A stretch of 64,000 nucleotides of DNA, from IMG/VR virus record IMGVR_UViG_3300028184_000121, positions 1 to 64,000 of that record, one strand, 5' to 3'. Shown in pieces: positions 25,094 through 63,265 of this stretch (positions within the stretch are counted from its first letter, which is position 1; each line of letters begins with the position of its first letter). The notes below the pieces were generated by a model that saw nothing but the letters and a program-made list of their open reading frames with translations, made no database searches and had not been told where the DNA came from. Made by a program: the position numbers and the translations under genes. The DNA is from an uncultured virus (IMG/VR IMGVR_UViG_3300028184_000121) (Duplodnaviria; Heunggongvirae; Uroviricota; Caudoviricetes).

Positions 25094-25100
25094 TATACTA

Positions 25101-25112: not shown

Positions 25113-25203
25113 AGGGAAATCTTCCCTCTGTCTAGTTTGTATTATCATGTATCCATGAGATTAAGCACGAGTAGAACCTTCGGGTTCTACTCACTTTTAT
25201 TTT
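25112..25203 (+). ncRNA. Candidate small RNA (~90 nt)
   Basis: Promoter, 5' hairpin AGGGAA-ATC-TTCCCT, and terminator; no SD-led ORF. Confidence 0.35.
25169..25203 (+). terminator. Intrinsic terminator
   Basis: GAGTAGAACC-TTCG-GGTTCTACTC + T-rich tail. Confidence 0.9.
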
Positions 25204-25206
25204 CGT

Positions 25207-25218
25207 AACATCTAATTA
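25207..25218 (+). promoter_or_regulatory. Late-type promoter AACA-TCTAAT-TA
   Basis: Exact consensus. Confidence 0.7.
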
Positions 25219-25238
25219 TAAAATAGAGGAGTGATATT

Positions 25239-25988: not shown

Positions 25989-25993
25989 GAAAA

Positions 25994-26030
25994 ACCCATA
26001 CTACATTCAGGTAGTATGGGGTCTTTTTTT
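25994..26030 (+). terminator. Intrinsic terminator
   Basis: CCCATACTAC-ATTCAG-GTAGTATGGG + T-run. Confidence 0.85.
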
Positions 26031-26053
26031 GCCTCCTCGCAATCTTGTAATGG

Positions 26054-26065
26054 AACATAAGATTA
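26054..26065 (+). promoter_or_regulatory. Late-type promoter AACA-TAAGAT-TA
   Basis: Exact consensus upstream of sheath. Confidence 0.75.
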
Positions 26066-26100
26066 ATATCTTATGACTTAAAAGATTGGAGGTTTTATTT

Positions 26101-27999
26101 ATGGCTATTGCTCCAGGTTTATACAAACATCCACACGATACACTTCGTGTTCAGGACAATACCGAAATTAAAACAGATTCCTTCGTAAACAATGGTGCAG
26201 TATTAATTGCTCCATTCATCTCTGACAAAGGTATCGATGGTCAAATGACACTTTTACGTGACTTAGCTATCACCGAAAGAGATTACGGTAAAGGAAACTT
26301 TAAAGTACACGGTCAAGGGTACTACAACGTACTATCTTGGTTGCGTAATGGTGGACAAGTACGAGGAATGCGTATTACAGCGAAAGATGCTACATATGCA
26401 AACGTACTTATCATGGCAAAAGTGGCAGTCTTTGACAAACAAAAGACTGACTCTAAAGGGAACCCTCTTTACATTGATGCTGTAACTGGTCAAGAGACTA
26501 CTACTGCTTCAGGTAACGTTCCTATTAAAGAAAAGAAAGCTGAAGTTAAACTTTTCGCTGAAAAGTATGACAACTTACGCGACGTGAACGATGACATCGA
26601 AATTCTTATGAAAGAGAAATACGATGACTCTAATGCTGCGGATGGGATTATTTTCCCACTTTACTTATTCGTATCAAAAGGTCGTGGAGAATTCGGTAAT
26701 GCTTACCGCATCCGCTTAACTCCATCTCCATCTCGCGATAAAGAAACTGTTTATCGTAACTACAGCTTCGAGTTATTTAACAACGAGAACGGGTTACAAC
26801 GTGTTGAGGTACCATTAAACATCTCTACATTCCCAGATGCTCGTAGTGTCTACAGCCGAAGCGAGTACATTGAAGATGTACTAAAACGTAACATCTTCCC
26901 AATTAACACTTTCGCTATTGAAGATTCATTCTATCAAATGGCTGAAATGTTACGCCCTGTAGTTCAACAAGAGCATCCAGAAGCGGAGATTAAACCAGAA
27001 GAAATCGACTTCTTATTCTTCCGTAACCGTGATACTACGAACTACAAACACATCACAACTGCTAAAGATAGCATTAACCTAAGTTTATACGAAGGTTACC
27101 CATTAGCAGCTGGTGACGATGGAGCGTTCAAACGTTCTAACCGTGACCGTCAAATCGCTATCAACGAACGTTTAATTGATGCGTTCGACGGAAAGATTGA
27201 TAAAACAATCTTAGACCGTAAACGTAACCCTGCTAACGTAGCTTTAGATGCAAACTATCCATTGGAAGTTAAGCAAGCTATGATTAACTGGCGTTACCTA
27301 CGTGATGACCTACCATTGTACTTAGATGCAGGTATGTCTCACACAATTCTTGACTTAAAGACATGGAGACAAACTGAGTTAACAGTTAACTCTTACGGAG
27401 TAACTATCATGGCTCAAAACTTCATGACTTATGATGAATACACAGGTAAGGATATTCCAGTAACAATGACTTACCTTGTAGCTAATACAATGCCAGCACA
27501 TTTCGCTTCTTATGGAAATCATATTCCATTAGCAGGTGACTTCGTGAAGCTGAACCAATACATTATTCCTAATAGTGTACGTCCTGCTGTGGCTGAAGAT
27601 GCAGATAAATCTGATCTTTACGAATTACGTTTGAACTACTTAGAAGAAGAGTACGGTGAAATCACATTCGGTACTCAGTTATCTTCTCAGTCTAAAGACT
27701 CTCAGTTATTAGACATGAACAACGTTCATACGTTATACGATATCAAACGCGATGTTGAAATGCTTAGCCCTAAATTCCGTTACAAACCAAATGAAACGGA
27801 AGAGGACTTAAAAGAATTCAACCGTATGTTGGACATGCGTCTAGCTAAATATCGTGACTTCAAATGTAAGTTCATTGAAGGTGTGATTACGAAGAGTTCA
27901 AACCCTGACACTCCTCGTCGTATCCAAACGGCTATCCGTGTCGGATTTAAATCTATCACTGAAATCAATGATATTACAATCTCAATTGACCGCGTGTAA
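26101..27999 (+). CDS. Contractile tail sheath protein
   Basis: YKHPH..RVQDNT start, SDKG, DYGK, WLRNGGQVRGMRI, LDANYP, C-terminal NNVHTL and beta-strand; followed by tube-sized gene. Confidence 0.8.
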   Translation: MAIAPGLYKHPHDTLRVQDNTEIKTDSFVNNGAVLIAPFISDKGIDGQMTLLRDLAITERDYGKGNFKVHGQGYYNVLSWLRNGGQVRGMRITAKDATYANVLIMAKVAVFDKQKTDSKGNPLYIDAVTGQETTTASGNVPIKEKKAEVKLFAEKYDNLRDVNDDIEILMKEKYDDSNAADGIIFPLYLFVSKGRGEFGNAYRIRLTPSPSRDKETVYRNYSFELFNNENGLQRVEVPLNISTFPDARSVYSRSEYIEDVLKRNIFPINTFAIEDSFYQMAEMLRPVVQQEHPEAEIKPEEIDFLFFRNRDTTNYKHITTAKDSINLSLYEGYPLAAGDDGAFKRSNRDRQIAINERLIDAFDGKIDKTILDRKRNPANVALDANYPLEVKQAMINWRYLRDDLPLYLDAGMSHTILDLKTWRQTELTVNSYGVTIMAQNFMTYDEYTGKDIPVTMTYLVANTMPAHFASYGNHIPLAGDFVKLNQYIIPNSVRPAVAEDADKSDLYELRLNYLEEEYGEITFGTQLSSQSKDSQLLDMNNVHTLYDIKRDVEMLSPKFRYKPNETEEDLKEFNRMLDMRLAKYRDFKCKFIEGVITKSSNPDTPRRIQTAIRVGFKSITEINDITISIDRV

Positions 28000-31191: not shown

Positions 31192-31833
31192 TTAGAAGTT
31201 AATTATGAGATACATATTTGATATAATATAGTGTTTTTTATGTACATCTATTATTGCTTTAAATAGATGAGGTTCATCTGTCTGATGAAAAGTCACGTAT
31301 ACTTTATCATTTTTCTTATATCCCTTAATCATCTTCTTACTCACTCGGACTATCATACTTCCTATCTGAACGGTATGTACTGATTTTGTTTCATTAATTT
31401 CATAAGCTACTTCTGACATATCCCCTGAGATAACTGTACCTGAATCCGATACCGTAGGTATATTATTATATTTATTCACCTTCTGTACGATAGGTTTCAA
31501 GTCTTTCTTTCGTCTAGATAATTCAATTGATTCTTCGTCATTACCTAGTCTAATGTACTTACTGGTCACATCTAGAATCTCTGGCTGTTTCACTACTTTA
31601 TACAAGCCAAAGAGTTCTTTTCCATCTACACAAATACCATCTAGTAGACTGAATAATTCTTTATATTCGGAGGAAATCGGAGTAACGACTGATACTCCGA
31701 CTGTTTCATCTCCAAATACATCTATTACCGCAGACATTACTTTACCATCTTTGATAATGTATCCACTGTCTTTACGCAAGTTTTTACAATCTTGATTCAT
31801 TGCGTTTAATACTTTCGGGTTAAACTCTACCAT
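31192..31833 (-). CDS. Hypothetical protein coupled to DNA polymerase gene (possible replication accessory)
   Basis: Start overlaps polymerase stop; mixed alpha/beta 213 aa. Confidence 0.65.
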   Translation of the reverse strand: MVEFNPKVLNAMNQDCKNLRKDSGYIIKDGKVMSAVIDVFGDETVGVSVVTPISSEYKELFSLLDGICVDGKELFGLYKVVKQPEILDVTSKYIRLGNDEESIELSRRKKDLKPIVQKVNKYNNIPTVSDSGTVISGDMSEVAYEINETKSVHTVQIGSMIVRVSKKMIKGYKKNDKVYVTFHQTDEPHLFKAIIDVHKKHYIISNMYLIINF

Positions 31834-33698
31834 GTAACCTTCACCTTCTCCGATAGTCTGGTCGCTTTTACTTTACGTATTTCGACACCTTTCTTATTCT
31901 TCTTCTTGTCATCTTTCTTAACTTTAGATACATATTGTACACGAGCCTTACGTATAGCACGTTCCCCAAGCTCATGTCCGAACTCTTCAAGCATATCTTC
32001 AGCAGATGGCATACCCATCCAACGATGCATGAATTGAACTGGTTCGTTTAATTCTAAATCTTCAATGAACTTACCACCTCTATCATACTTGTCCATATCA
32101 GTGATAACTTCTCGTTTCGTAATGTTACGATTATCCATAATGACTCGACCCAGCTGCGTCGTAGCAAATATGTTGAATATCATGATAATCGATGGATATA
32201 GTGAACTATAGTCAAAGTCCATTACGTTATTAAATACATTTCGTGATTGATAGTTCTTCAAGATATTCATACCTGTAGGCAAGTTTAACTTCGGATCACC
32301 AACTACGGCACCCTCGAAGCGCTCTTGGTTCTCACTATCTCCTGAACTTTCACCATAGGTAATATTATGATTATTACCCATAACTAATCCTTGCTCCTGG
32401 AACTCCATTGCTGCTTTATTTCTCAGGAACACAGTTTCTTTATATGTTTTATTGAATCGTGTACTAGAGTCATATGCTTTATTAAACAGTAACTCGATAT
32501 CATTTAATTTATTTTCGATTTTCATCTGAATAAGTACATCTCGAATATTGTATCGTACAAACATCTTGTAATCTACATAAGGTAAGTTTCTGAAGTTTGC
32601 TGTACCCGTATATTCTAACTTCTTAGCTCCTACTTCTCTATCACCTATGTAATCTAACTTATAGCTATCTAACTCTGCACCCGATTTACGAATCGCTGCA
32701 TAGTTAATCATTTGGTCTACCCATACTGTAAAGCTAGTTAGTGTTGCATAATCACCTTTACGGTTAATTTTAAAGTTACGTTTATCTGCATAGTACCAAC
32801 ACTCTTTATACTTGAATGCTTCATCCGTCATGATGTCTTCTGGGTCAATTCCTAATCGTTCGATACGGTGCATAATGTACTGAAAATCGAACCCGAGGTT
32901 CCATACCATCATAAAGTCTACACGGATAATATTAATAATCTGGAATAACTTTCTGATTAATTCTATCTCAGTATCACACATGATAATATGGTACTCAAGT
33001 TTACCGAATTCTGGTTCGAACTCAGCTTCAATCTCTTCAATGAATCCTGGAATGTCTTGCTCGAATTCCGCAATCAATGGATTCTCTGAGTTACGTAATA
33101 ATAGAGTGAACGATTGTTTCTTATCATTGTCCACAAGTGTTACAGCATTAATAGGAGCAGAACCTTCTACATTCTTCATATCAATGTTTCCTGCATAGAT
33201 ATCTGCCTCTATATCTAGGAACCCCTTAGTTAACTTAAACTTCTCTTTTGTTCCAAAGTGTTCTAGACATTTAAACTTATAGAAATCCTCTACATCTACA
33301 TCAGATGAGAAGATACGATTCCATTTATGGAAGTTCTTTAATTCAGAAGAACGTCGTTCTTTAATCATCTGCCAATACTGGTTGACGGCTTGCTCACCAA
33401 TTAGACCAGCTATATCTTTCAAGACATAACGGTAACTTAAATCAACCTTATTAACTTTATCGGCTTCTATACAAATCATAGGATAGTCTATTTGGACATC
33501 ATCCTTTGCCACATATGCTTCAATCTGTGGATTCTCAATAATCTTTAATTGCTTCTCACCCGTCTTTATGTTTTTAATAATTAGTGAGATAGCGTCTGGA
33601 GTCATATCATCTCCATCACGTTTAGGCTTGTGGTACATCTGATTTAATAAGATGTAATCCCCGCCTTCTGGCAGTCCCAGTAGTTTGGTCATATCCAT
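31827..33698 (-). CDS. polB: Family B DNA polymerase, exonuclease + motif A subunit of a split polymerase
   Basis: ExoI LDIEAD, ExoII WNLGFDFQYI, SYKLDYIG, ExoIII YNIRDV, GAVV, motif A DFDYSSLYPSII; motifs B/C absent; ATG 33698 after GGGAGG. Confidence 0.9.
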   Translation of the reverse strand: MDMTKLLGLPEGGDYILLNQMYHKPKRDGDDMTPDAISLIIKNIKTGEKQLKIIENPQIEAYVAKDDVQIDYPMICIEADKVNKVDLSYRYVLKDIAGLIGEQAVNQYWQMIKERRSSELKNFHKWNRIFSSDVDVEDFYKFKCLEHFGTKEKFKLTKGFLDIEADIYAGNIDMKNVEGSAPINAVTLVDNDKKQSFTLLLRNSENPLIAEFEQDIPGFIEEIEAEFEPEFGKLEYHIIMCDTEIELIRKLFQIINIIRVDFMMVWNLGFDFQYIMHRIERLGIDPEDIMTDEAFKYKECWYYADKRNFKINRKGDYATLTSFTVWVDQMINYAAIRKSGAELDSYKLDYIGDREVGAKKLEYTGTANFRNLPYVDYKMFVRYNIRDVLIQMKIENKLNDIELLFNKAYDSSTRFNKTYKETVFLRNKAAMEFQEQGLVMGNNHNITYGESSGDSENQERFEGAVVGDPKLNLPTGMNILKNYQSRNVFNNVMDFDYSSLYPSIIMIFNIFATTQLGRVIMDNRNITKREVITDMDKYDRGGKFIEDLELNEPVQFMHRWMGMPSAEDMLEEFGHELGERAIRKARVQYVSKVKKDDKKKNKKGVEIRKVKATRLSEKVKVTW

Positions 33699-33770
33699 AT
33701 TAAAATTCCTCCCTTTATTCTCGGTTAATGAAGTGTTTCCCTCCTTTTCAATTTCAAGTCTTTTCTCTTT

Positions 33771-33787
33771 CACTTAGATAATATATA
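33771..33787 (-). promoter_or_regulatory. Early-type promoter TATATATTATctaaGTG
   Basis: Recurrent motif upstream of polymerase. Confidence 0.65.
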
Positions 33788-33844: not shown

Positions 33845-34939
33845 ATGAAATTAAGAATAGCAAAGGTAAAACGTGTAGAACCCAAATCACAAAAGTTACC
33901 TACTTCTATACCAAGCGTGTATAAAGAAGAAAATGATAAGGACTTAGCAATCTTAAATAGCCTAATGGCTAGTACTCGTATACGAGATAAAATGCACGAA
34001 GATAAAAAAGAAAAAGAGAAAAAAAAGAAAGAGAAACCATCGAAGAAGAAAAAAAGCGGTAAGAAACGTCAAAGTGCTATATCAGCACTTTACGAGATGA
34101 GTGGAACAAATAAAGATATATTTGGAGAAGGTGGTGGTGGAACTCCTGTACCTGCAACAAAAGCAGATAAGAGTGCAGAAGACTTCTACGAACAACGTTT
34201 CGATGGCTCCATTATGATGCTACGCGACCTACTTAAAAATATTAATCATATGACAGAAGATGGTCAAGCATTCTTAGATATGCTGAAAAAGACACCTCAT
34301 TATAGAGGCTACTTAACAGCTATTACGAACCAAACATCTAACTTAGCTTCACTAGTAAATACAAAGTTAAGTATCGTAAAAGAGATTACATCTGTTAATA
34401 AAAGTATCTCTGACCTTGAGCTTAAACGTGCGGCTAGAGAAGCGAAAGAAGGTAACGCTGCGGGTGGAGCTGGTGCTAGTGATGAATTCTTAATCAACCA
34501 AGCATTTGCTCAATTAATGGATACTGATACACCTACCGTTACAACGAAGAAAAAGAAGAAGAAAAAGAAATTGGAAGAAGACCCGAATTATAACTTCGGT
34601 ATTCCTGAAGATGAAATTGCATTGGAAGACTTGGGTGAAGAGGATTTCGATGATATGATTGATGCACGCTTCGATCAGCTCGTTGAGGCTGAAGATATTG
34701 TCTTAACAGACAATGAGCAAGCATTCCATTATGAAGGTGATACTGGTATTAAGATTGTTATCCGTAAATGGTTACCATCAGAAAGATGGGAGTTCGAAGC
34801 GGTTAACGCTTTAGGAGAAGTGTTAGATGATCATCCGTTACCAGATAGAGACTCTGTTGGACGTATTCAATTCGATAAAGATAAAGGAATTGCACGTGAC
34901 AGATTAGGTACGGTTTATGAGGTTATGTATTCGAGATAA
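33845..34939 (+). CDS. Hypothetical protein with poly-Lys tracts, coiled coil and N-terminal KLRIAKVKRVEP motif
   Basis: SD GAGGAGG, 364 aa. Confidence 0.75.
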   Translation: MKLRIAKVKRVEPKSQKLPTSIPSVYKEENDKDLAILNSLMASTRIRDKMHEDKKEKEKKKKEKPSKKKKSGKKRQSAISALYEMSGTNKDIFGEGGGGTPVPATKADKSAEDFYEQRFDGSIMMLRDLLKNINHMTEDGQAFLDMLKKTPHYRGYLTAITNQTSNLASLVNTKLSIVKEITSVNKSISDLELKRAAREAKEGNAAGGAGASDEFLINQAFAQLMDTDTPTVTTKKKKKKKKLEEDPNYNFGIPEDEIALEDLGEEDFDDMIDARFDQLVEAEDIVLTDNEQAFHYEGDTGIKIVIRKWLPSERWEFEAVNALGEVLDDHPLPDRDSVGRIQFDKDKGIARDRLGTVYEVMYSR

Positions 34940-40677: not shown

Positions 40678-41187
40678 TTACATTAAGTCCATTCTGGGAA
40701 CATAGATATTTAGGATAAAATAATGTGAGTCAAATTCAGGAATTCCAGAACCAGACAAGTTATTCCATACATGTCGATGGATTGTAACGACATTCACTTT
40801 TGTTTCATCAAACTCAGGCTTAACGAAATCAAACGTTGTTTTACTTGGAATAAACATTCCGTGATGTTCTGTACTCTTACGAGTTCCAAATACTAATTCA
40901 TTACCGATTACGCATTGTCCAAACTCTTCAGTTCCTTCAGAACCTGATACTGAATTTGAACGATTATAGTTACGCAATGTCAGTGTGTTTTCAAATTCCT
41001 TTGGGTCACGAGTTACGTGTACCATGTAACCTAAACTTACATCGACAGTATCAATGATTTTCTTTAGGTATGTAGTAGAGATATCCCCTTCAGCTTTCTG
41101 AACGATTAACTCTAAAAGATTAATCTTCTGATTCTCTAACGCGATGTCCTTCATCATTTCTGGTCTAGCTACTGTTGTGATTGTCAT
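40678..41187 (-). CDS. Hypothetical protein, 'hYIP' paralog family
   Basis: VIGNELVFG; C-terminal LNIYVP; long structured leader. Confidence 0.75.
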   Translation of the reverse strand: MTITTVARPEMMKDIALENQKINLLELIVQKAEGDISTTYLKKIIDTVDVSLGYMVHVTRDPKEFENTLTLRNYNRSNSVSGSEGTEEFGQCVIGNELVFGTRKSTEHHGMFIPSKTTFDFVKPEFDETKVNVVTIHRHVWNNLSGSGIPEFDSHYFILNIYVPRMDLM

Positions 41188-45515: not shown

Positions 45516-47276
45516 TTAATCCTCTAGCCGTGTTGCTTTCACTTTTCTTGCTTTTGGTTTTGTCTTGACCCTAGCTGGGTCAACTCGAACTACTTTTGCA
45601 ATTCGTAGTTTATCATCCACATCTAATATATTATATCCTTTGTTATACTCATCGTTACGGATGAAGTAATGGACATCTTCTAGACGTTCTACCATCTTAC
45701 GAGATTTCTTCTCTTGTTGATAGAAGTAGTCAAGACCTTTAATTTCATATTGTTTTCCTTCAAAGTGGTTCGCATATAATTTCTTATAGTTTGCTAACCA
45801 ATTATCCGGTTCAGGCGTATCATCAAAGTACATTCCGAAGTTCTCCATGAACGGTGTAAATACGCCACCCATACCTGGATCAGATGAACCTGATGTATTA
45901 ATGTCGAGTCGTCCAACGTGTGATGGATGTACTCCGCGATACTTTATGTTTACAGCATTGCTACTATGCTCACCAAGTGAACCAGGACCCTTCGTTGAAT
46001 ACTTCAACGCTGTAAAGAAGTCCATGTCATTCACAGTGTTATCATAGCGCAGTAAGCTGGATTTACTTTTGTGTAACTGTTTGATTAACTCATCTGGTGG
46101 GAATGTTAAGAGTCCCACTAAGTCAGCCATTGTTACTGCATTACGTTTACGGCTTAATAACATATTTACTTTCGTAGATAGTTTACGAATAAAGTAGAAT
46201 GCAATGTACTCAGCCATACGAATACGTTTGTTTGCTAAGTCCATATTATCCTTAGCTTTCAACTCAGAGAAGTTACATAGTAACCATCTAATTAATGCAT
46301 AGATGTTTTCTTTGTTGAATGGTTGTAGCTTCAGACTCTTACGAGTCGTGTTATCCAATAGACGATAGAACGAAAGTAATACATTCTTTCCTTTCTCTAA
46401 CTGTCCATTGGTATTCTTTGCGAACTCAGCACCTAATGAAGTGACCCAATAATCAACATCTTCTAATTGATGGAATTCTGTCTTCTTACATAACTCGTGT
46501 AACGCATATACCATTGACTGAACGAAGTGATCGTTGTCAAATAAGTATTTTACTACTTTTACGTATACATGGTTACACTTGAAATAATGATGTTCTTCAT
46601 CATCCCAGTTTGGTTCAGCAACTACATCGATAGCATCCTCTACATTCATGAAGCGTAATGTATTCTCTAATCCCATTGTTGCTAAATAGTATAGGACAGC
46701 ATTACATTTCTTCTTGAAGATACATAATGTATAATGTGGAACCTGGAATGAATCTCCTGCTATAGAGTTCAGTTTTCCTGTGTTCCGTTTAATAATAATT
46801 GGCATGTACATTGTTTTCAATGTCACGTAATCCTTATTATTATAGGTACTACTATCTACAATCTGATAGATTGGATAGAACTTATTCCCACTCATCATCA
46901 GATAGTATTTCTTATATTGCTTCAATAACAGAAGTTCTACTTGCTTATACTGAACTTCATTGTTTAGCGTTAACTTAAAGTTTACACGAAGCATATTGTA
47001 ACGAGTCACATCAATATTGATGTGCTTTTTGATATTCTTTCCTTTGCTTTTCTTAGACTTTAAATACTTCTCATTAACAACATCTGTATCGAACTGAGAC
47101 TCATGCTCAATGTAGTCATAGTCTAGCATTTTGATGTTATTAATTACTTCTAGTGATTTAAATGCATCTAAGATATAATCAACCAGAGGTTCATTTCTCA
47201 TCCCGTAGATTAACTCTTCATTGATTCTCTTTCTGTTGGGATTCTCATACTGTGATATAAATTTTGAAAAACTCAT
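45516..47276 (-). CDS. rpoB: Phage multisubunit RNA polymerase beta subunit, N-terminal half
   Basis: DLANKRIR, GPGSL, RGVHPSHVGRLD..TS..SDPGM (compare RDVHPTHYGR); ATG 47276 after GGGGAG. Confidence 0.88.
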   Translation of the reverse strand: MSFSKFISQYENPNRKRINEELIYGMRNEPLVDYILDAFKSLEVINNIKMLDYDYIEHESQFDTDVVNEKYLKSKKSKGKNIKKHINIDVTRYNMLRVNFKLTLNNEVQYKQVELLLLKQYKKYYLMMSGNKFYPIYQIVDSSTYNNKDYVTLKTMYMPIIIKRNTGKLNSIAGDSFQVPHYTLCIFKKKCNAVLYYLATMGLENTLRFMNVEDAIDVVAEPNWDDEEHHYFKCNHVYVKVVKYLFDNDHFVQSMVYALHELCKKTEFHQLEDVDYWVTSLGAEFAKNTNGQLEKGKNVLLSFYRLLDNTTRKSLKLQPFNKENIYALIRWLLCNFSELKAKDNMDLANKRIRMAEYIAFYFIRKLSTKVNMLLSRKRNAVTMADLVGLLTFPPDELIKQLHKSKSSLLRYDNTVNDMDFFTALKYSTKGPGSLGEHSSNAVNIKYRGVHPSHVGRLDINTSGSSDPGMGGVFTPFMENFGMYFDDTPEPDNWLANYKKLYANHFEGKQYEIKGLDYFYQQEKKSRKMVERLEDVHYFIRNDEYNKGYNILDVDDKLRIAKVVRVDPARVKTKPKARKVKATRLED

Positions 47277-47310
47277 GTTACTCCCCCTCGTGGCTTTCTG
47301 TAGTGACAAT

Positions 47311-47347
47311 AAAAAAATAAGTAGCGGTAACCTCTCGGTCACCGCTA
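47311..47347 (-). terminator. Intrinsic terminator just upstream of beta-N gene
   Basis: TAGCGGTGACC-GAGA-GGTTACCGCTA + TTATTTTTTT on minus strand. Confidence 0.8.
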
Positions 47348-47363: not shown

Positions 47364-47693
47364 TTATTCTTCGTCAGATTCTTCTAACTCTTCTAGTTGA
47401 GCATCTGATTTAATACGTTTCTTGATCTCAGCATGAGCTGTGATTCCGATAACGATTTCATCTTCCTGTTTAACACCTTTGAACTCGATGTAGTCAGCAA
47501 GTTTAACTACTACTGATGCTCCATTTTCAGCATCTTTTAATTCTTCGCCGATTACAGTACCAACGTATTGGTAGTAACCTTTCACAGTATCTTCAACGAA
47601 TGATGCGTCTTCGAAACGTACACGCATGTTGTCCTCGATGAATTGTGTTTGTCCTTCAAAGAATTTCTTGTCCATTTTAATTGTTTTAGCCAT
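47364..47693 (-). CDS. Acidic HU/IHF-fold-like small protein A
   Basis: Helix-helix-beta pattern, VVKLADYIEF, IGITAHAEIKKRIK; paralog of next gene. Confidence 0.45.
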   Translation of the reverse strand: MAKTIKMDKKFFEGQTQFIEDNMRVRFEDASFVEDTVKGYYQYVGTVIGEELKDAENGASVVVKLADYIEFKGVKQEDEIVIGITAHAEIKKRIKSDAQLEELEESDEE

Positions 47694-47757: not shown

Positions 47758-48066
47758 TTAAGCTTCGTTTGCTAATTCAACTAATTCTTCACCAGCAGTA
47801 ATACCAATACCGAAGTTACCTTCAGACTCATCTGCACCTGCACGATAAGAAGCTTGGTATGTAACTAATCCATCTAATTCTAAAGCTACTGGTTCTTCTT
47901 CATTTTTATTTGCTCCAAGTACTTCACCAGCATATTGGTGGTTACCTTTAACAACCATTTCTAATAAATCTAAATCTTCAGGATCATAGTCAACTCCATT
48001 GTTTTCTACTAGGAAAGCTGAAAGTCCTTTGAAGAATTCTTCGTTCATTTCGATTGTTTTAGTCAT
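47758..48066 (-). CDS. Acidic HU/IHF-fold-like small protein B
   Basis: MTKTIEMNEEFFKG vs MAKTIKMDKKFFEG; LELDGLVTY; IGITAGEELVELAN. Confidence 0.45.
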   Translation of the reverse strand: MTKTIEMNEEFFKGLSAFLVENNGVDYDPEDLDLLEMVVKGNHQYAGEVLGANKNEEEPVALELDGLVTYQASYRAGADESEGNFGIGITAGEELVELANEA

Positions 48067-48104
48067 TTTAATTTCCTCCAATTAAGTTAAGTATATTTTT
48101 CCTA

Positions 48105-52489: not shown

Positions 52490-54640
52490 TTAACCTCTTA
52501 CCTTCTTTTCAAACTCTTTACGCGAAATTACTTCAATACCTTTGTCTAAAGCCTTCGCTACTTTCTTCTTACTCGTATCATGTGGATCAGTTGCCACTAA
52601 ATATGTCAACCCTTTGAATCCACTGTCTACTACTTTATATCCTTTTGCTTCACACTCTTTCTTTAAGTCCTTATCTCGGAATCCAGTAAACATAACTTTC
52701 TTCTTACCAGTATCCTGATGTGCTTCGAACTTAGAATGTATAATGTTATTTGTAAATACTTCTTGTAATAGATATTGTAAAGTCGGCATGACTTCATCTA
52801 ATCCATTAATAAAGTTTTCTTTCTTAGCATCTCTTACATTCGGAATATTAACTGTCCCGATAGAATAAGAGTTCTTCATTACTTCTTGTAATGTATACCA
52901 ATTTAAAATCTGCTCACTCGTCTTTGGACCAGAGATACCTAACGCATTACATAAGTTATAATCATGTATCGGTTCGGTTCTAATTCTCTCAATCTCAGAC
53001 TTTATATTATTTACTTTTGATTCTCCGAATCCATCTAATTGTAAGATAGCTGAATAATCTAGATTAAATAATGATGGGATATCCGTAAGGAGACCTTCAT
53101 CATATAATCGTGTTACTGTCTTATCAGCAAAGTCTTTCAGACCTAATGCTTTGATAAAGAATGTAATACGATTCAAATGTTTCGTTGTACAATTACCATT
53201 TGCACAGAAATAGTTCTTTCCTTTCTGTACTATAGACCCTCCACAGCTTGGACATTGGTCAGGATATCCAATGACTGGACCCATCCCGTTATGTCGTACG
53301 GTTGGTTGCACATAAGGCATTACATCACCGTTATAAGATACTGTAACTGTATCTCCGTAATGTAAATTCATCTTACTAAATCTCTCATAAGATGATAGTG
53401 TACTATGATTGTGGATTGTACCATTTAGTTCAATCGGATCATAGAAAAGGATCGGTGTTAATAATCCTGTACGACCTACGGTTACTTCGAATCCTTTAAC
53501 AGTCGTCTGCACTTCATCGGGTGGATACTTGTAAGCTACCTGATATTTATTAATTGCATTCTTTCTTCCAAACTCATCACGAATCTCATCATTGATTACA
53601 TCGATAACGATACCATCAATTGCGAATCCTAAGTCTGGACGCTTTACTCGAATGTCTGCTATGAAGTCATGAATCTTAGCCATCGCTTCTTTTACCGATG
53701 TTACTTCTAACTCAATAAATGATAGTGCTAAGTTCTGTGCAAACATTTTGTTTATTACCGCATAGGATACTTCCTCATCGGTATCTGTTACGGCATACAA
53801 TGGAACTGGTGTTAAGTACTTTGCATACTTGGCTCCATTACTAGCTGATACAATACTAACTGCCGCGCTTCGACAGTTTGCATAACTCTTTCCTCGTTCT
53901 TCCATGTATAAATCACGGTTTGCTTTTGTTACAATTAACTCTGTCTTCAATCCGAAGTTTAACCCCATTTCATTTAAGGCATTCGGATATCTTACATTTG
54001 TAAATAAGTGTGTTAGGTCTGTTCCATTACCATCATCACCACGAGTGATTGCTGATACAACTTTACCTGTTACACTATCTATTTCTAAGATGACAGATAC
54101 GCCATCATACTTTAATGATAATCTGATACGAAGAGGTCCACGGCTTCTAGCCATCCAACTTCTAATGAAGGATTCAACATCTTTCGTACCTTCTTTCCTT
54201 TGTGTGTTATCTGCTGTATAGATAAAATGAGCCTTGTCTAATGTACCACGTAATAGTGGAAACTCATGTGTCGTATCTTTCGTACGTCTACCAACAAATA
54301 ATGTAGCCTCAATTGGCTCAGCGCGATAAGACTTAAATTTATCTAATGTTATGTCATATATCTTATCGCTTACAAACTCCTTTCCATTTTCGTATATGAT
54401 TTTTAATGCCTTGATAATGTCTTCAACACTATCAAGCATTTCATCTATTTTCTTTTCTTTACCTTCTTTAACGAAGCGTTCCATATATAATTCAACGCCC
54501 GCTTTCTTCAGCGTATTCTTCGCTTGACGTAGCTTTCCTTTCTTTGCAAGCTTCAATGCTTTTGCAAATAATTCTTCAGGAGCTACTGTTAGTTCATCTG
54601 GCTTAATTCGTTTGACTCTCGCTACTCTAATTTCAGTCAT
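52490..54640 (-). CDS. ligA: NAD-dependent DNA ligase
   Basis: KYDG adenylation motif, AITRGDDGNG, DGIV, AYK, VGRTG, CPSCG...C..GNC Zn finger, HhH repeats, BRCT (FTGFRD). Confidence 0.95.
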   Translation of the reverse strand: MTEIRVARVKRIKPDELTVAPEELFAKALKLAKKGKLRQAKNTLKKAGVELYMERFVKEGKEKKIDEMLDSVEDIIKALKIIYENGKEFVSDKIYDITLDKFKSYRAEPIEATLFVGRRTKDTTHEFPLLRGTLDKAHFIYTADNTQRKEGTKDVESFIRSWMARSRGPLRIRLSLKYDGVSVILEIDSVTGKVVSAITRGDDGNGTDLTHLFTNVRYPNALNEMGLNFGLKTELIVTKANRDLYMEERGKSYANCRSAAVSIVSASNGAKYAKYLTPVPLYAVTDTDEEVSYAVINKMFAQNLALSFIELEVTSVKEAMAKIHDFIADIRVKRPDLGFAIDGIVIDVINDEIRDEFGRKNAINKYQVAYKYPPDEVQTTVKGFEVTVGRTGLLTPILFYDPIELNGTIHNHSTLSSYERFSKMNLHYGDTVTVSYNGDVMPYVQPTVRHNGMGPVIGYPDQCPSCGGSIVQKGKNYFCANGNCTTKHLNRITFFIKALGLKDFADKTVTRLYDEGLLTDIPSLFNLDYSAILQLDGFGESKVNNIKSEIERIRTEPIHDYNLCNALGISGPKTSEQILNWYTLQEVMKNSYSIGTVNIPNVRDAKKENFINGLDEVMPTLQYLLQEVFTNNIIHSKFEAHQDTGKKKVMFTGFRDKDLKKECEAKGYKVVDSGFKGLTYLVATDPHDTSKKKVAKALDKGIEVISRKEFEKKVRG

Positions 54641-55359: not shown

Positions 55360-56403
55360 TTAAATAACATTTGGTACTACTACATATAATGTAGGATACC
55401 CTGCAACATAACCATCATTAATAGTCATAGAGTCCATATCAAAATCAAGTAAATGTGGTATCACAAGACTATTAACTCGGATAAATTGTTTTGCTGTTTC
55501 TTCTAAGTTTGTACGCATAATCTCAAATGTTTCACGAGAGTATGTCGCCGGAGCTGCTAATGTTAATTTAAGGAAATAGCTAGTCGGCTCTGCAATATGA
55601 CTTCTCGTTTCAAGATATTTGTACACGCCCCCATCACCAGGTTTAATTTTTGATATAAGCGCTCCTTGTACGACAGCTTTTGTTATAACTTTATCTGACA
55701 CTTTAACCTGAGATGCAAAGTCTGCGGACAATGGTGTCCATAGCATACGAGCATCAGGTAAAACCGCAGCTGGGCTATCAGACTGTACCCATATTTCAAA
55801 ATCATGGAAACCTTTTAATTTTGTTACTTTATTGGCTCTCATTAGAGCTTCTTCTTTTTCTACTTCTACACGTTTTAATGCATTGCGTAATACTAATTTT
55901 GCATTAAGTACTCCTGCATGATCCGGCATTCCGTTAACTGGAACCAAACCAAATTCATACCAAGAGACAACACCTACCGCTGCAAATTCATCTTGACTGA
56001 ATAGTTCGATTAAATGCTTATCATTCAGTTTATCGAATTCACTAAACGTCATAAGTGTTGGATGCATTGCATGTAGTAATATATCTTTACCGTTTTTATC
56101 TTCAACAAATTCACGGTATATGCCATCTTTAGTATCATTATTACGTCGAACGTTATATTCACCTCGGACAACTGCACTTACATGAATGTCTTCAGGAATC
56201 TTATATGTATCCTGTACTTCTTTACATTGCTCATCTGTTACACCCATTGTACGATAAGATGCCGCAGGCAATGATAATCCTTTTTTAAATGATCCACTTG
56301 TAGCCTTTACAGGTAAATCATATTCTGTAAATTTTAATGCCATATCATCTACCTGTAGTAGATGTGGTCTAATATGCTTTACAGATACATTCTTTCTAAC
56401 CAT
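55360..56403 (-). CDS. Hypothetical protein with two repeated domains
   Basis: VSAVVRG/TKAVVQG, DGIYREF/GGVYKYL, TFSEFD/SRETFE repeats. Confidence 0.72.
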   Translation of the reverse strand: MVRKNVSVKHIRPHLLQVDDMALKFTEYDLPVKATSGSFKKGLSLPAASYRTMGVTDEQCKEVQDTYKIPEDIHVSAVVRGEYNVRRNNDTKDGIYREFVEDKNGKDILLHAMHPTLMTFSEFDKLNDKHLIELFSQDEFAAVGVVSWYEFGLVPVNGMPDHAGVLNAKLVLRNALKRVEVEKEEALMRANKVTKLKGFHDFEIWVQSDSPAAVLPDARMLWTPLSADFASQVKVSDKVITKAVVQGALISKIKPGDGGVYKYLETRSHIAEPTSYFLKLTLAAPATYSRETFEIMRTNLEETAKQFIRVNSLVIPHLLDFDMDSMTINDGYVAGYPTLYVVVPNVI

Positions 56404-58708: not shown

Positions 58709-59215
58709 TTAAACGATGTCAAATAACTTCGTAATGATTTCTATCTCTTTATCCATTTTATATGGTTGACCCTCTGGTAAGTAGATTGCAACTTCTTTAT
58801 GCATCTTATCAAAGTTAGGGTCTTTACTTGTAATCTCAATTACTGCTACTTCATCAACTGAGAAGTTTGGTAATTGTAATTTACTTTCAGCTTGACTATA
58901 GAAAGTAGCTTCCTTCTCAATCTTCTTACCTACTTCTACATTACCTACGATTACACGGCAATATTGTTTTACGTAAGTTGGTACTGTGTTACCTGCTTTA
59001 GATTTAGTAATATCTTTATCAAAACATTTTTCAGCAAATTTCTTTGAAGTTTCATATACGTTAATTCTGTATTGTTCCATCACATCCATATTACTCACTA
59101 CAGCTTCAATCTGAGATTTAGTTAATGCACCTCGCGTACGCTTGATAATCGTTCCGATTAAAATCGCCTTTCGTTCCGCCATATTAAGTGTTTTATAATT
59201 TTTTAATTCCGACAT
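58709..59215 (-). CDS. Hypothetical protein, 'hYIP' family
   Basis: VIVGNVEVG; VAIYLP. Confidence 0.75.
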   Translation of the reverse strand: MSELKNYKTLNMAERKAILIGTIIKRTRGALTKSQIEAVVSNMDVMEQYRINVYETSKKFAEKCFDKDITKSKAGNTVPTYVKQYCRVIVGNVEVGKKIEKEATFYSQAESKLQLPNFSVDEVAVIEITSKDPNFDKMHKEVAIYLPEGQPYKMDKEIEIITKLFDIV

Positions 59216-59237
59216 TGTTAAAATTCCTCCTAATTAG

Positions 59238-59762
59238 TTATGTTAAACAAACGTGTAATTCATAATGTAAACTTATTGGTTGTTCTTCTCTCGTTACTTC
59301 CCTAACGATCATAGTTGCAAATAAGTTACGTGTACCAAAATCTTCTATGTTTCCAATTTCAAATGTTTTACCCTCGACGATATTTACACCTTCGATGATT
59401 TCTGTATCATAATTATAACCATATCCATATGCTTGGAATGATGCTTTTGCTTTTGCTTTTGTTATTTTAATATCTCCGATTATCACTACAGGCATAGCCA
59501 CATGACGGATTGTTACTTCTTTTCCATCCTCCATCATTGTATATGTGAAGTCTCTTCCTGTACATGCATTTGATAGGAACTTGCGATATGCAGGACCTCT
59601 TTCTGCGGCATCAGCATAAATGTGTACTGCATCAATATGATGTGTTGTGAAAACACCTATGAATGCTGATCTATCTCCGTCTCCTAATTCTAATCTACTA
59701 ATCCCAAAAGGTCTTGGTCCAAATATTGATAAGAATGCTTCTTCATGTTTTAATGTAGTCAT
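59238..59762 (-). CDS. Hypothetical protein, 'hYIP' family
   Basis: VHIY, IIGDIKI, ELHVCL. Confidence 0.72.
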   Translation of the reverse strand: MTTLKHEEAFLSIFGPRPFGISRLELGDGDRSAFIGVFTTHHIDAVHIYADAAERGPAYRKFLSNACTGRDFTYTMMEDGKEVTIRHVAMPVVIIGDIKITKAKAKASFQAYGYGYNYDTEIIEGVNIVEGKTFEIGNIEDFGTRNLFATMIVREVTREEQPISLHYELHVCLT

Positions 59763-59775
59763 TATTATTTCCCCC

Positions 59776-60330
59776 TTATTTTATCCCTCTGTAGTTGTAA
59801 CACAATTCCATAACGGTATCTGGTATATAGACATGTAACCTGGACTTAATATCCGAATCAGTTACTTCTTCATTTTCCAGAGTCTGATAGGAATGTGTGA
59901 CTCGAATGATTAAAATATTCTCATGGAGATTTTTAGGGTCATAGTCTTTTGACTCACCTCTGACATCGATATCAACATCCACACATCGACCACTATTGAA
60001 TGGATCGAATATAACCGCCGCATTTACATGTGTGTCTGGAATCTTGATGTCTTTTGGAATGAGTAACCATTCCGGTGTTACCTTTTGCTTTATTTCTAAT
60101 GTCCCACCATCAAGCTTGTATATGCCATCTCTTTTTGTGGTAGCGTGCATAGTGAATACAGGATACTCCTTGTATCCCATGTATACCGCTACATCATCTA
60201 TAATATTACTGAACTGCAATTGATGCCGTAGAACTGCAATTACATTCTCAGCTGGTTGAAATCCTCTAATTCCCAAAATCACATTACTGTCTAATGATTG
60301 TAAAGCCACCTCTTTAGTTAGAATAGTCAT
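59776..60330 (-). CDS. Hypothetical protein, 'hYIP' family
   Basis: VAVYMG; RLHVYIP. Confidence 0.75.
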   Translation of the reverse strand: MTILTKEVALQSLDSNVILGIRGFQPAENVIAVLRHQLQFSNIIDDVAVYMGYKEYPVFTMHATTKRDGIYKLDGGTLEIKQKVTPEWLLIPKDIKIPDTHVNAAVIFDPFNSGRCVDVDIDVRGESKDYDPKNLHENILIIRVTHSYQTLENEEVTDSDIKSRLHVYIPDTVMELCYNYRGIK

Positions 60331-60400
60331 TTTTAATAACCTCTTTCTATTATATTATCGGATGGAGTTTTATCTCCATCCGGTGTTACCATTGATAAAC

Positions 60401-60901
60401 CTATATACGATTATTAGGAATATAAATGTGTAATTCTTTGAGGTCATGTTCTTGCCCATCGTCATTCGTTCCATAACGATTTACCTGAACAATTTGTAAC
60501 TTGCTTTCATTTAAAGTTCCTTGTACATGAGGTCGTTCGACTTCTCCTATACGTGGATGCTCCATAAGACAATCATAGGCTACATCCGCAAACTCTAATG
60601 AACCGCATGTAGCTTCTCCGTATAATACATAATTTGCTGTAGCATACGTAATTTTAGTATCTGGTTCAGTCACTGATACATATTTTACTAACATACGAGT
60701 TAAAGCATTATCTATAAACTTTTGTGTTTTAGAATACGCTTCATTTCGATCCGAGTATATATGAACTAAGTCAAATTTTTCTTTGTGTAATGTTGCGAGT
60801 AGAACGTGTAATTCATTATGCATTAACATAAAGTCTTTTAAACCTAATACGTTCGGTGAGAATAGTGAGTGTAATGTTTCATCATGTGATAGTGTTTTCA
60901 T
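60401..60901 (-). CDS. Hypothetical protein, 'hYIP' family
   Basis: ATG 60901 after GAGGAG; VHIY, VLYGE, ELHIYIP. Confidence 0.75.
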   Translation of the reverse strand: MKTLSHDETLHSLFSPNVLGLKDFMLMHNELHVLLATLHKEKFDLVHIYSDRNEAYSKTQKFIDNALTRMLVKYVSVTEPDTKITYATANYVLYGEATCGSLEFADVAYDCLMEHPRIGEVERPHVQGTLNESKLQIVQVNRYGTNDDGQEHDLKELHIYIPNNRI

Positions 60902-60947
60902 TGTAATATCTCTCCTCAAATAAATTAGTAGGATAAAGCTTTTAGCT

Positions 60948-61418
60948 TTATCCCTGTTCTGCTTGCAGAATGCGATTCTCTGGAATGTGTATATACATAA
61001 TACTTCCATCGCCTCTATATTTCATTTTGTCAGCATGTATAACTCCAACTAAATCTTCTGCTAGGGTCATAGTAAACTGATTAGAATCAACGAAGCATTC
61101 GCTTCGTTTTTCACTATTGGGTTGATACTTTGGATAGACTGAGTCTTCCACTTTTCCTACTGACACGTTACCTGATAAGACTTTAATACGACGCATTTCC
61201 ATTCGGTCAGACGTTTGTTTAAAGTTACTGTCATAGCACGCTAGTTTCTTGAATGGCGATAACTCTCCATTCCCAAAGAAGAAGCGAACTCCTGTGATAT
61301 CATCATTCTTCTTTAAGTGTGAAACTAATACTTTCTTTTCTGAATCTTTCATTAATCCGCCATGCGGGATCATAGATTCATTGTACTTCATAAGTTCTTC
61401 TCTTACGTATAATTCCAT
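60948..61418 (-). CDS. Hypothetical protein, 'hYIP' family
   Basis: VLSGNVSVG; MYIHIP. Confidence 0.75.
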   Translation of the reverse strand: MELYVREELMKYNESMIPHGGLMKDSEKKVLVSHLKKNDDITGVRFFFGNGELSPFKKLACYDSNFKQTSDRMEMRRIKVLSGNVSVGKVEDSVYPKYQPNSEKRSECFVDSNQFTMTLAEDLVGVIHADKMKYRGDGSIMYIHIPENRILQAEQG

Positions 61419-61425
61419 TTCTTAG

Positions 61426-61486
61426 CTCCTTATCTCCATACCTTATAAGTATGGGGGAGGGTTGTTATGGACAACCCTAAAACCTT
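61426..61486 (-). promoter_or_regulatory. Structured 5' leader, copy 3
   Basis: AAGGTTT(T) + AGGGTTGT-CCATA-ACAACCCT + CCATAC/GTATGG hairpin + AAGGAG. Confidence 0.7.
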
Positions 61487-61499
61487 TATTAATGGCTTA

Positions 61500-61518
61500 C
61501 TCACTAATATAATGTATG
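61500..61518 (-). promoter_or_regulatory. Early-type promoter CATACATTATAttaGTGAG
   Basis: Recurrent motif. Confidence 0.65.
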
Positions 61519-61543
61519 ACTGAATACACATTTGTTACGTTTT

Positions 61544-62083
61544 TTATTCTACTGGAATTGTAGGGTTAATATTAGGCTGATATACATGTAGTTCATTATA
61601 CACTTCATCATGCTCTTTTCCTGTAGTTAACTCTTTTACGCAACGAGTAATTGTTCTAATAAAGATATGAGGCTTCTCAATATCAAAGTTCTCAAATTCT
61701 TTATCTGTATCAGCAATGAGAGTCTGACGTGTTTTACCAAAAATAGTCTCTACTGTCTGGCGAATATGCTTATCACCAAATTCAATATCACTATCAATAG
61801 CCTTTACAAAGATACTTGACATCTCCATACACTCATCATTTTTACCGTAATACTTTTCATTATATAATACGTCAGTGATAGACATTTCTTGAGAGTTAAT
61901 ATCATCTTTATGATGATATACAAAACGAAGAAACTTATCAGATGATAAGTTCTTCAGTAATGTAGCTGTAATATTTCTATCCATTTCCGATATGATATTA
62001 TTCTCTACCATGTGATCATATCGTGCTTGCATTGTTTTTATTAATTGACCAATATGTTCTAGTCCGTCTCCAAATATATGCAT
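61544..62083 (-). CDS. Hypothetical protein, 'hYIP' family
   Basis: ATG 62083 after GAGGAG; DIEFG; ELHVYQP. Confidence 0.75.
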   Translation of the reverse strand: MHIFGDGLEHIGQLIKTMQARYDHMVENNIISEMDRNITATLLKNLSSDKFLRFVYHHKDDINSQEMSITDVLYNEKYYGKNDECMEMSSIFVKAIDSDIEFGDKHIRQTVETIFGKTRQTLIADTDKEFENFDIEKPHIFIRTITRCVKELTTGKEHDEVYNELHVYQPNINPTIPVE

Positions 62084-62084
62084 A

Positions 62085-62690
62085 CTAGTTCTCCTCACTT
62101 TCTGTAAATTCTTCAAATAAGGTACCTGGCATTAGAATATGTAATGAGTATTCAGGTTTCGTACTTGTAGCAGAGCGTTCTGCAAATATACGATGAGATT
62201 CATAATCTTTTACTAGTGCAATAATAATCTCTTTTTTACCCGGGAACTTAGTAAGTTTTTCGGATGTAGTTGTCATGATTTCCAATTGTCCAGTATGTGT
62301 CATTTTCTGTGACGTATGGATACATTTATTACCTTTAAGAATAGCGTCAGCACCCTTAACGATATCCACTCGTCGAGTGGTAGTTTTATTACCAATAATT
62401 TCAGAGATATTTGGAACTTCTCCCACAGGGTATTGCATATTCGTAGGAACTGTTTCATCCATATCAATACACTTAAATGCGAAGTCTAAGAAGTCCTTCG
62501 AGAATAATGAGCAATCCCCACCATCGTATAAGTGTACTAATTTAAGTCCATATGTATCATCTTGTAGTAATGTTTTAATTGCATCTGTATGATCTTGTGA
62601 GAAGTGTAATGATGAATTCTTAGGAAGGAATTTATCCAGCCCGTCCTTCTCGATATGTTGTAATGTAAGTTCTTTTGATAGTGTAATCAT
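62085..62690 (-). CDS. Hypothetical protein, 'hYIP' family
   Basis: VHLYDG; SLHILMP. Confidence 0.72.
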   Translation of the reverse strand: MITLSKELTLQHIEKDGLDKFLPKNSSLHFSQDHTDAIKTLLQDDTYGLKLVHLYDGGDCSLFSKDFLDFAFKCIDMDETVPTNMQYPVGEVPNISEIIGNKTTTRRVDIVKGADAILKGNKCIHTSQKMTHTGQLEIMTTTSEKLTKFPGKKEIIIALVKDYESHRIFAERSATSTKPEYSLHILMPGTLFEEFTESEEN

Positions 62691-63265
62691 TATTTATTCT
62701 CTCCCTTTTCTGTAGTTGGTACATATACCATAATATGTCGGTAAACACCCATAACGTCAGCAGGTTTATACCATTGCATTTCATTATTTGGGCGTGTAGC
62801 TATTTCTACTTCTACTTCGCATATAATAACATTATTTATAAACATTGGAATTGCTACACCATCTTCATCACAAGCGGTACATGATTCCATAATTTCAGTT
62901 TGCATAACACCATTACGATTCATATATGCAAAGTTTTTAATTTTTCTTGTTTTAGGTTGATAAGTTCCAAATAATACTGTAACTTTATGAGTATCAAATG
63001 AATCGAATGGTTTTACACCAATTCGAGATATGTGCTTGTTTGTAGCCTCATCGATAAATGTAAACATATCATTCTGACCTTCGAAGATTGCAATACTATC
63101 GATAACCTTTTCACCTTGTGCGAGTCTATCTAAGATAATATCATGATGCTCATGTAGTAATGAGCCATCTCTACATAATTTTGTAATTTTATTAAGTCCT
63201 TTATCTATATTCTCTAAGCGAATATTTTCATATACTTTCTCAGCCTTATGTAAGTCTGTCGTCAT
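62690..63265 (-). CDS. Hypothetical protein, 'hYIP' family
   Basis: IAIFEG, VLFG, IMVYVP. Confidence 0.72.
   Translation of the reverse strand: MTTDLHKAEKVYENIRLENIDKGLNKITKLCRDGSLLHEHHDIILDRLAQGEKVIDSIAIFEGQNDMFTFIDEATNKHISRIGVKPFDSFDTHKVTVLFGTYQPKTRKIKNFAYMNRNGVMQTEIMESCTACDEDGVAIPMFINNVIICEVEVEIATRPNNEMQWYKPADVMGVYRHIMVYVPTTEKGENK

Follow-up and report, generated by a model that had tools for sequence, protein, structure and literature searches.

The PIP and APIM motifs that bind PCNA and the tails of herpesvirus polymerases are short, partly basic peptides that bind a clamp-fold protein as an extra strand next to its inter-domain loop. The clamp of phage T4, gp45, binds one motif that is present on the polymerase, the ligase, gp33 and gp55 and that fits a hydrophobic patch (PMC7892883, in the text available). 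In phiKZ gp155 and Goslar gp190, the Rhc clamp domain forms part of a clamp-derived subunit that accompanies a split family-B polymerase (10.64898/2026.09.30.755723, PMC13648698). Import into the chimallin nucleus by PicA/Imp1 makes a species-specific choice of replication and transcription proteins and is exploited by homing endonucleases, and the accessible part of a review places AR9-like phages outside Chimalliviridae (PMC11087766, PMC13282480). Here we describe a nine-residue peptide that recurs at the ends of replication and transcription proteins encoded in a 64,000-base stretch of viral DNA (hereafter the window; bases 1-64,000 of the 73-kb virus record IMGVR_UViG_3300028184_000121, 35% G+C), which, judged from its sequence, is part of an AR9-like jumbo phage.

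The peptide is a protein-level, terminal, multi-copy, portable and genome-specific motif on proteins of replication, recombination and non-virion transcription. We favour, with a probability of about 0.6, the explanation that it is a genome-private short linear docking motif by which one phage-encoded site would gather its carriers on replicating DNA.

A terminal peptide on replication and transcription proteins

The initial annotation had proposed from the window that a basic peptide tag is shared by the beta-N subunit of RNA polymerase (RNAP), the DNA polymerase, the ligase and a protein without assigned function, the product of open reading frame (ORF) 33845. All six copies on these four proteins were found at the places proposed. 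As the rest of this phage's genome we took a near-identical 223-kb IMG/VR record, G001, which is about 90% complete; the proteins compared between the window and G001 (beta-N, ORF 33845, ORF 31192 and the polymerase) are 100% identical. G001 has 248 ORFs of 50 amino acids or more and encodes a split family-B polymerase, virion and non-virion RNAP subunits, DnaB, GyrA/B, tubulin and polyphosphate kinase. The Pfam scan covered 184 of the ORFs and the PHROGs scan 87, the remaining ones being mostly small and outside both scans.

The copies follow a nearly palindromic nine-residue consensus, h-R-x-[AV]-[KR]-[AV]-x-[RY]-h. The strict alternation of basic and hydrophobic residues first described does not hold, as hydrophobic residues occupy positions 1, 4, 6 and 9 and basic residues positions 2, 5 and 8. 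A looser pattern that was fixed on the window before the rest of the genome was seen gave 7 matches in 173 held-out ORFs of G001 (49,014 amino acids), against 0.25-0.33 expected. None of 300 shuffles reached 7, whether the shuffling was of whole proteins or local over 30 or 15 residues. All seven held-out matches lie within 47 residues of a protein end, and 34% of residues lie within 50. The final pattern, which was adjusted after the copies were known, finds 15 copies in 12 proteins of G001, every one of them terminal (within 47 residues of an end), against a shuffle mean of 0.1 and with no match in the other five reading frames.

Because local, composition-keeping shuffles give 0.1-0.3 matches where 7-15 are observed, the likeness between the copies goes beyond K/R/V composition. 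Codon identity between G001 copies is 0.40 against 0.38 expected from codon usage; as codon sharing is thus no higher than expected, selection acts on the peptide and not on a DNA repeat. The stricter pattern that accompanied the first proposal performs well in the window, with 3 matches in 75 ORFs against 0.01-0.05 expected (0 of 300 shuffles), but its single held-out match was reached by 10-22 of 300 shuffles and is not significant. Counting by fixed patterns may overlook weaker copies; loose look-alikes at the N-termini of RusA and ORF 55360-56403 were left out of the counts.

The non-virion RNAP beta-N subunit is encoded at 45516..47342 on the minus strand (phrog_2943). It is the orthologue of AR9 gp105, to which its residues 19-511 are 30.7% identical (tblastn, E 8e-62), and the ORF matches the beta-N of AR9 and of 20 other records of the AR9 group at 27-32% identity. 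Translation is likely to begin at Met23 of the listed ORF, a ribosome-binding site preceding that codon. The protein ends in a C-terminal extension of about 100 residues that AR9 beta-N (496 amino acids) does not have, and the end of the ORF, at 45516-45611 on the minus strand, carries two tag copies: residues 579-587 (45582..45608, minus strand) and residues 598-606 (45525..45551, minus strand), the second stopping two residues short of the C-terminus. The available text of the AR9 RNAP structure paper is silent on a beta-N tail (PMC9209446).

The protein first described as the DNA polymerase (31827..33773, minus strand; PF03104, PF00136, phrog_3011) does carry the tag, at residues 607-615 (31929..31955, minus strand) and 632-640 (31854..31880, minus strand), but the family-B polymerase is split, and this protein is only its N-terminal, exonuclease half. 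The catalytic half (PF20286) lies outside the window, at G001 149487-151427 (L092:16487-18427). The reported identity stands: the last copies of beta-N and of the polymerase share 8 of 8 residues (RKVKATRL), encoded by codons of which 3 of 8 are identical.

The remaining two copies in this set are N-terminal. ORF 33845 (33845..34939, plus strand; phrog_27823) encodes a conserved protein without assigned function that has homologues in AR9 and in all other sampled genomes except SA1. Its copy spans residues 3-11 (33851..33877, plus strand), and its closer homologues have a related strand at the N-terminus. The predicted structure, a poor model with an overall predicted local distance difference test (pLDDT) score of 56 and values below 50 over residues 1-30, has a disordered N-terminus, long helices and a small C-terminal beta domain. 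Matches in the ESM Atlas were unnamed clusters below 0.9 only, and a profile search of viral contigs for relatives of this protein found none. The NAD-dependent DNA ligase (52490..54640, minus strand; PF01653, PF03120) has its copy at residues 4-12 (54605..54631, minus strand).

Across G001, the annotated carriers are beta-N and the polymerase N-half, with two copies each, together with beta'-N (identified by its match to the AR9 non-virion subunit, 7s01_d), the ligase, DnaB, GyrA and a PC4-like DNA-binding protein (phrog_26484). Further carriers are ORF 33845 and four proteins without useful annotation, of 291, 321 (two copies), 323 (DUF1281) and 73 amino acids. The suggested enrichment at the termini of DNA-acting proteins was borne out, the motif being present on 7 of 29 annotated DNA- or RNA-acting proteins in a hand-made list and on 5 of 217 others (Fisher p = 8e-5). 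Its absence from structural proteins also held, with none of 19 structural ORFs carrying it, and it is on none of the 4 virion-RNAP subunits of G001 or the 16 examined across four genomes. Among the DNA enzymes of G001 that lack a tag are the primase, RecA, GyrB, SbcC/D, Dda, UvsW, the catalytic polymerase half, beta-C, beta'-C and the sigma-like subunit. An import signal had been among the functions proposed for the peptide. Because the primase, RecA, GyrB, SbcC, Dda, beta-C, beta'-C and the sigma-like subunit lack a copy, recruitment is a likelier role than that of an obligatory import signal.

Different tags in related phages

The closest relatives are L102 (82% identical), L112, L116 and L006; the comparison within the basic clade covers 21 kb of L102 and single proteins. 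The tails of close orthologues (37-72% identity) finish with basic/hydrophobic strands, most often a pair of them. With a single fixed pattern, 12 of 23 close beta-N tails and 11 of 15 close polymerase tails are matched, against 0 of 29 and 0 of 34 distant ones, truncated or split entries having been excluded from both sets; most of the close tails that do not match have, by eye, a sister version. In L102, whose beta-N is 82% identical, a matching variant is present on beta-N and at the same N-terminal place on the ligase. Lys and Arg make up 0.39-0.42 of the last 30 residues in this clade compared with 0.09-0.14 in distant orthologues. For five beta-N/polymerase pairs of the basic clade, three of them presumed to belong together because their contigs are equally long, the cognate pairing was the best of 120 permutations, with one pair not first in its own row.

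We surveyed 80 distant polymerase loci, of which 47 are distinct. Many of the polymerase tails, though not all, contain another short motif repeated two or three times, and this motif is found again within the contig, on the beta-N extension or the orthologue of ORF 33845. Co-variation was assessed by comparing the best-7-mer similarity of cognate pairs with that in permuted genomes. Among these related genomes, it gave p = 3e-5 for beta-N and polymerase (10 representatives of 12 loci), p = 0.0014 for ORF 33845 and polymerase (19 of 29) and p = 0.005 for ORF 33845 and beta-N (8 of 10); controls that used internal segments gave p = 0.98 and 0.38.

With patterns chosen after the tails had been inspected, G009 has an N-P-F-I-H-like tag (24 matches, 21 terminal, shuffle 0.6), G010 an M-C-x-I-V-like tag (16 matches, 14 terminal, shuffle 1.85) and G011 an M-V-x-F-like tag (14 matches, 9 terminal, shuffle 1.95). 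Each genome's pattern, including that of G001, has at most 3 matches in any other of 8 genomes. As an independent check, three tagged G009 proteins without assigned function were followed into G010 and G011, where by eye 6 of 6 orthologues have the local tag at the corresponding end. The tag is portable between protein positions: that of DnaB is at the N-terminus in G001 and at the C-terminus in G009-G011, and that of the ligase is at the N-terminus in G001 and occurs twice in an internal loop in G009-G011. In G004-G006, a Tyr/Ile/Asn/Asp-rich version is terminal on beta-N, beta-C, PC4 and the orthologue of ORF 33845; a loose pattern for it beats shuffles in G006 only (19 against 5.8, maximum 14). 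In the orthologues inspected from the cultured phages AR9, LPJP1 and SA1 there is no clear shared tag by eye, with at most a weak Ile/Asn-rich likeness in AR9 between beta-N and the ORF 33845 homologue.

In equivalent places, the tags of relatives are aromatic/proline, Met-Cys or Asn/Asp-rich, and some of them are neutral or acidic. Because chemically different tags are placed on equivalent sites, basic character is not the conserved feature. Among relatives it is the set of tagged proteins that overlaps, and the tag sequence is specific to each genome. Different tags on overlapping proteins, together with their co-variation, point to a docking or address code at the protein level and not to a generic basic tail. 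The proposal of a short linear motif for a hub or compartment is supported by the terminal, enriched and co-varying nature of the peptide, though not in the basic character ascribed to it.

HNH endonucleases also carry the tag of their own genome, in four cases from three genomes: one in G006, one in G009 and two in G010 (L197:16013-16600, L296:11989-12993, L307:5335-6135 and L309:4820-5701). Two of them are located where beta-N and sigma genes are split, with a gene half on either side. The proteins of G010 and G011 that best match the tagged HNH protein of G009 have no tag within the 22 end residues examined. Separately, the beta-N gene of L102 (L102:9980-12667) is split near its 3' end by an HNH-bearing insertion, and that of G006 is split at a similar place.

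A clamp-fold protein as candidate receptor

If the peptide is a docking motif, all copies would bind one site on one phage-encoded partner that is oligomeric or DNA-bound. Binding would probably be as an extended strand added to the edge of a beta-sheet, and the near-palindromic pattern would allow it from either protein end. Such binding would bring the polymerase, helicase, ligase, topoisomerase and late RNA polymerase together on phage DNA that is being replicated, as T4 clamp-binding motifs do. The multiple copies on a tail would provide avidity, and tag and receptor could drift together.

One candidate for the partner is an unannotated protein of 213 amino acids encoded at 31192..31833 on the minus strand, in a gene that overlaps that of the polymerase N-half. 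It carries no tag and is predicted to have a sliding-clamp fold. In a structural comparison of its AlphaFold2 model (pLDDT 88.7, 34 aligned sequences) with 48,161 chains, ranks 1-39 are all clamps or processivity factors and the first unrelated chain has a Z score of 4.4. The best match is PCNA (Z 10.4, root-mean-square deviation 4.0 over 185 residues), T4 gp45 scores Z 9.5, and the Foldseek E value is 3.5e-4. The protein is shorter than gp45 and PCNA chains (230-260 residues), its second domain is shortened and the monomer model is consistent with a ring-less form. A gene of 170-300 amino acids follows that of the polymerase in 33 of the 47 distinct loci. A clamp profile had no match in SA1, phiR1-37 or LPJP1, which is uninformative at that divergence, and the net charge of clamp orthologues does not clearly track tag charge. 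No clamp-loader family was found among the 184 Pfam-scanned and 87 PHROGs-scanned ORFs of this roughly 90% complete genome, the ORFs outside the scans being mostly small. The broad group that contains these phages is described as lacking a classical clamp in the accessible part of a review (PMC7824862).

Within the docking explanation, about one third of the odds fall to the clamp-fold protein as receptor, for which it would need a second site. The rest of the odds are spread over a putative single-stranded-DNA-binding protein (SSB), ORF 33845 itself, and kinase-like or HU-like proteins that occur in tagged genomes only. Kinase-like, HU-like (G001 204318-204890) and putative SSB (G001 151493-152317) families, all three named by eye, and a PD-(D/E)XK nuclease occur in each of the 7 tagged genomes and went undetected in the 3 untagged ones, by profile search as well. 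A tubulin/PhuZ-like gene (G001 69941-71056, L088:12941-14056) is found in 6 of the 7 tagged genomes and in none of AR9, LPJP1 and SA1. Because the contrast between tagged and untagged genomes is a single deep split with three untagged genomes, it serves only to list candidates. The kinase-like protein (G001 1431-2237, L085) has a C-terminal Cys cluster and an invariant G-T-N-R loop, Lys, Glu and two Asp, positions that we take to resemble a protein-kinase core. Its family has no Pfam or PDB kinase match and belongs only to phrog_4301, of unknown function; the SSB-like family has no Pfam or PDB support.

Several observations weigh against the docking explanation or against the clamp-fold protein as its reader. 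In the co-variation tests the cognate pair ranks first in only 5 of 10 cases for beta-N and polymerase, 4 of 19 for ORF 33845 and polymerase and 2 of 8 for ORF 33845 and beta-N, and the p values overstate independence because the genomes are related. Several lineages among the 47 distinct loci have no visible tag. The counts for G009-G011 are partly circular because their patterns were chosen after inspection of the tails, and the loose pattern for G004-G006 is close to shuffled values in G004 (5 against 4.6) and within the shuffled range in G005 (9 against 4.3, shuffle maximum 10). The set of carriers also varies, beta-C, beta'-C, sigma, UvsW and SbcD being tagged in G009-G011 and not in G001. 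With respect to the receptor, AR9 has a clamp homologue (G008 106726-107493, E 3e-10) but no clear tag, and the C-terminal motif of the catalytic polymerase half is constant in 10 of 10 genomes, whether or not they are tagged. Two preprints of 2026 describe the related clamp domain of chimalliviruses, in the text available, as a single ring-less subunit bound to the catalytic half, in phiKZ at the thumb (10.64898/2026.09.30.755723). Because the catalytic tail is invariant and the phiKZ clamp binds the catalytic half, the main site of the clamp is probably used by a partner that does not vary. A likely ligand is the catalytic polymerase tail, and the clamp-fold protein is more probably a processivity subunit of the polymerase than the receptor of the tag.

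Alternative explanations

The tag could instead be an address into a replication and transcription compartment built without chimallin, with lineage-specific passwords that exclude the proteins of competing phages and host nucleases. We consider this unlikely, although several features fit it. Tags are carried by non-virion RNAP subunits and by none of the 16 virion-RNAP subunits, the four HNH endonucleases bear their own genome's tag, tubulin is present in 6 of 7 tagged and in none of 3 cultured untagged genomes, and complete turnover of the code is what an arms race would produce. For chimalliviruses, it has been argued that competitors' toxic endonucleases drive import specificity (PMC11087766). 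An address for a compartment is harder to reconcile with the primase, RecA, GyrB, SbcC, Dda and the clamp being untagged in G001 and among the listed G009-G011 matches, or with a shifting set of carriers. One tagged genome has no tubulin, the contrast rests on the one deep split with three untagged genomes, and chimallivirus import is described as using no terminal linear signals (PMC13282480, PMC11087766, in the parts accessible). No shell protein was found by an insensitive search: phiKZ gp54 (chimallin) gave nothing below E 0.05 in five genomes, where the control gp68 also missed a known homologue, and phiKZ gp69 (PicA) gave best E values of 0.096-0.98 in five genomes with the same limited sensitivity. 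A broader proposal is that tubulin-bearing AR9-like phages build a chimallin-less compartment or scaffold and admit proteins by a lineage-private peptide password that would change in 10-20 genes together in the course of an arms race with competitors and with homing endonucleases, some of which would have copied the password; this we regard as doubtful yet conceivable.

It is improbable that the tags dispense with a separate receptor and bind each other as beta-zippers, neutralized by DNA or polyphosphate, to form a condensate. The near-palindromic pattern and the two copies per tail would suit such an arrangement, and self-recognition would force all carriers to change together. A full-length polyphosphate kinase 1 is encoded at G001 24585-26783 (L086:5585-7783) and also in G004, G005, G006 and L157, but the enzyme was not found in 3 of 7 tagged genomes. 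Moreover, the G009 tag has a central proline and other tags have aromatic anchors, unlike self-stacking strands.

Docking of a phage modifying enzyme that regulates or protects the carriers, for example the kinase-like protein at G001 1431-2237, is more improbable still. That family occurs in all 7 tagged genomes and in none of the 3 untagged ones, and its invariant residues presumably recall a protein-kinase core, but several other families are distributed in the same way, phrog_4301 is its only match and no Pfam or PDB kinase matches it, and the up to four copies found per tail are better suited to avidity.

That the tails are ordinary basic extensions for non-specific DNA binding, alike only through their K/R/V composition, is very unlikely. 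The tails of this clade are indeed K/R-rich and all annotated carriers act on DNA, but the composition-keeping local shuffles (0.1-0.3 against 7-15) largely refute this explanation; the motif is present on 6 of 19 K/R-rich termini and missing from 13, and the tags of relatives on the same proteins are neutral or acidic. A repeated DNA element read in frame (a promoter, repeat or conversion tract) is refuted for this genome by the lack of codon excess in G001 and of matches in the other five frames, and G009 (0.52 against 0.57) and G010 (0.44 against 0.44) show no excess either, although codon identity between the copies of G011 is 0.75 against 0.60 expected (92 comparisons).

Neighbouring and other genes

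Just upstream of beta-N are two small, very acidic proteins (47364-47693 and 47758-48081, minus strand), both conserved in L102; by eye they appear HU-like with short arms, and we assume that they may be DNA mimics. A 218-amino-acid protein without assigned function (window 6208-6864, plus strand) is conserved in all seven tagged genomes, adjoins beta-N in several of them and has only a partial homologue in AR9. Many proteins of 150-200 amino acids encoded at 648-1779, 40678-41187 and 58709-63265, and at G000 64522-70953, share a similar terminal L-x-h-Y-h-P strand and probably form an expanded paralogue family; the members scanned had no Pfam match. L157 is a 188-kb AR9-like phage contig that lies inside a Clostridium genome bin.

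Significance and comparison with known systems

No published description of the tag was found in the literature searched, a search that did not extend to supplements and most subscription papers. What the present analysis contributes is the basic near-palindromic tag, its held-out test, the cross-genome co-variation with controls and the ground for doubting the clamp as its reader. One peptide on both the replisome and the late RNA polymerase suggests a physical coupling of replication and transcription in AR9-like phages. Turnover of the tag amounts to a natural experiment in the re-coding of a many-client interface and may be one way in which co-infecting phages become incompatible; orthogonal pairs of tag and receptor would also be of use as tools. 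A compartment password, if true, would be a true targeting-sequence system in bacterial viruses.

The clamp-fold protein encoded at 31192-31833 is, on its predicted structure, a probable counterpart of the Rhc clamp domain, from which it differs in having no RNase H domain, all 213 of its residues aligning to clamp folds. Rhc binds the catalytic half by a folded interface, and no linear motif shared by many clients is described for it in the text available (10.64898/2026.09.30.755723, PMC13648698). The resemblance to PicA/Imp1 lies in the choice of replication and transcription proteins and in the endonucleases that carry the tag. PicA/Imp1 reads folded surfaces and no conserved linear motif, according to the accessible text (PMC11087766, PMC13282480), whereas here a terminal linear motif is shared; that system also depends on chimallin and PicA, for both of which the insensitive test made here was negative.

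The T4 and RB69 gp45 system, as far as the text available describes it, is similar in that one short motif sits on the flexible tails of the polymerase, the ligase and late-transcription proteins, a clamp-fold gene lies beside the polymerase gene and the docking code is common to replication and late transcription. The motif described here differs in being basic and strand-like, without aromatic anchors, and not a hydrophobic plug. It is also on the phage's own RNAP subunits, the helicase and the topoisomerase, often in two copies, and relatives replace it by unrelated motifs. Because the motif type does not fit and the clamp is only a candidate receptor, we do not assign this tag to the T4 clamp-motif system. 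PIP and APIM motifs and herpesvirus polymerase tails are, as we understand them, conserved over long distances. Known hub motifs are conserved in this way, whereas the tag turns over completely within one phage group, changing between relatives yet remaining matched across a dozen or more proteins.

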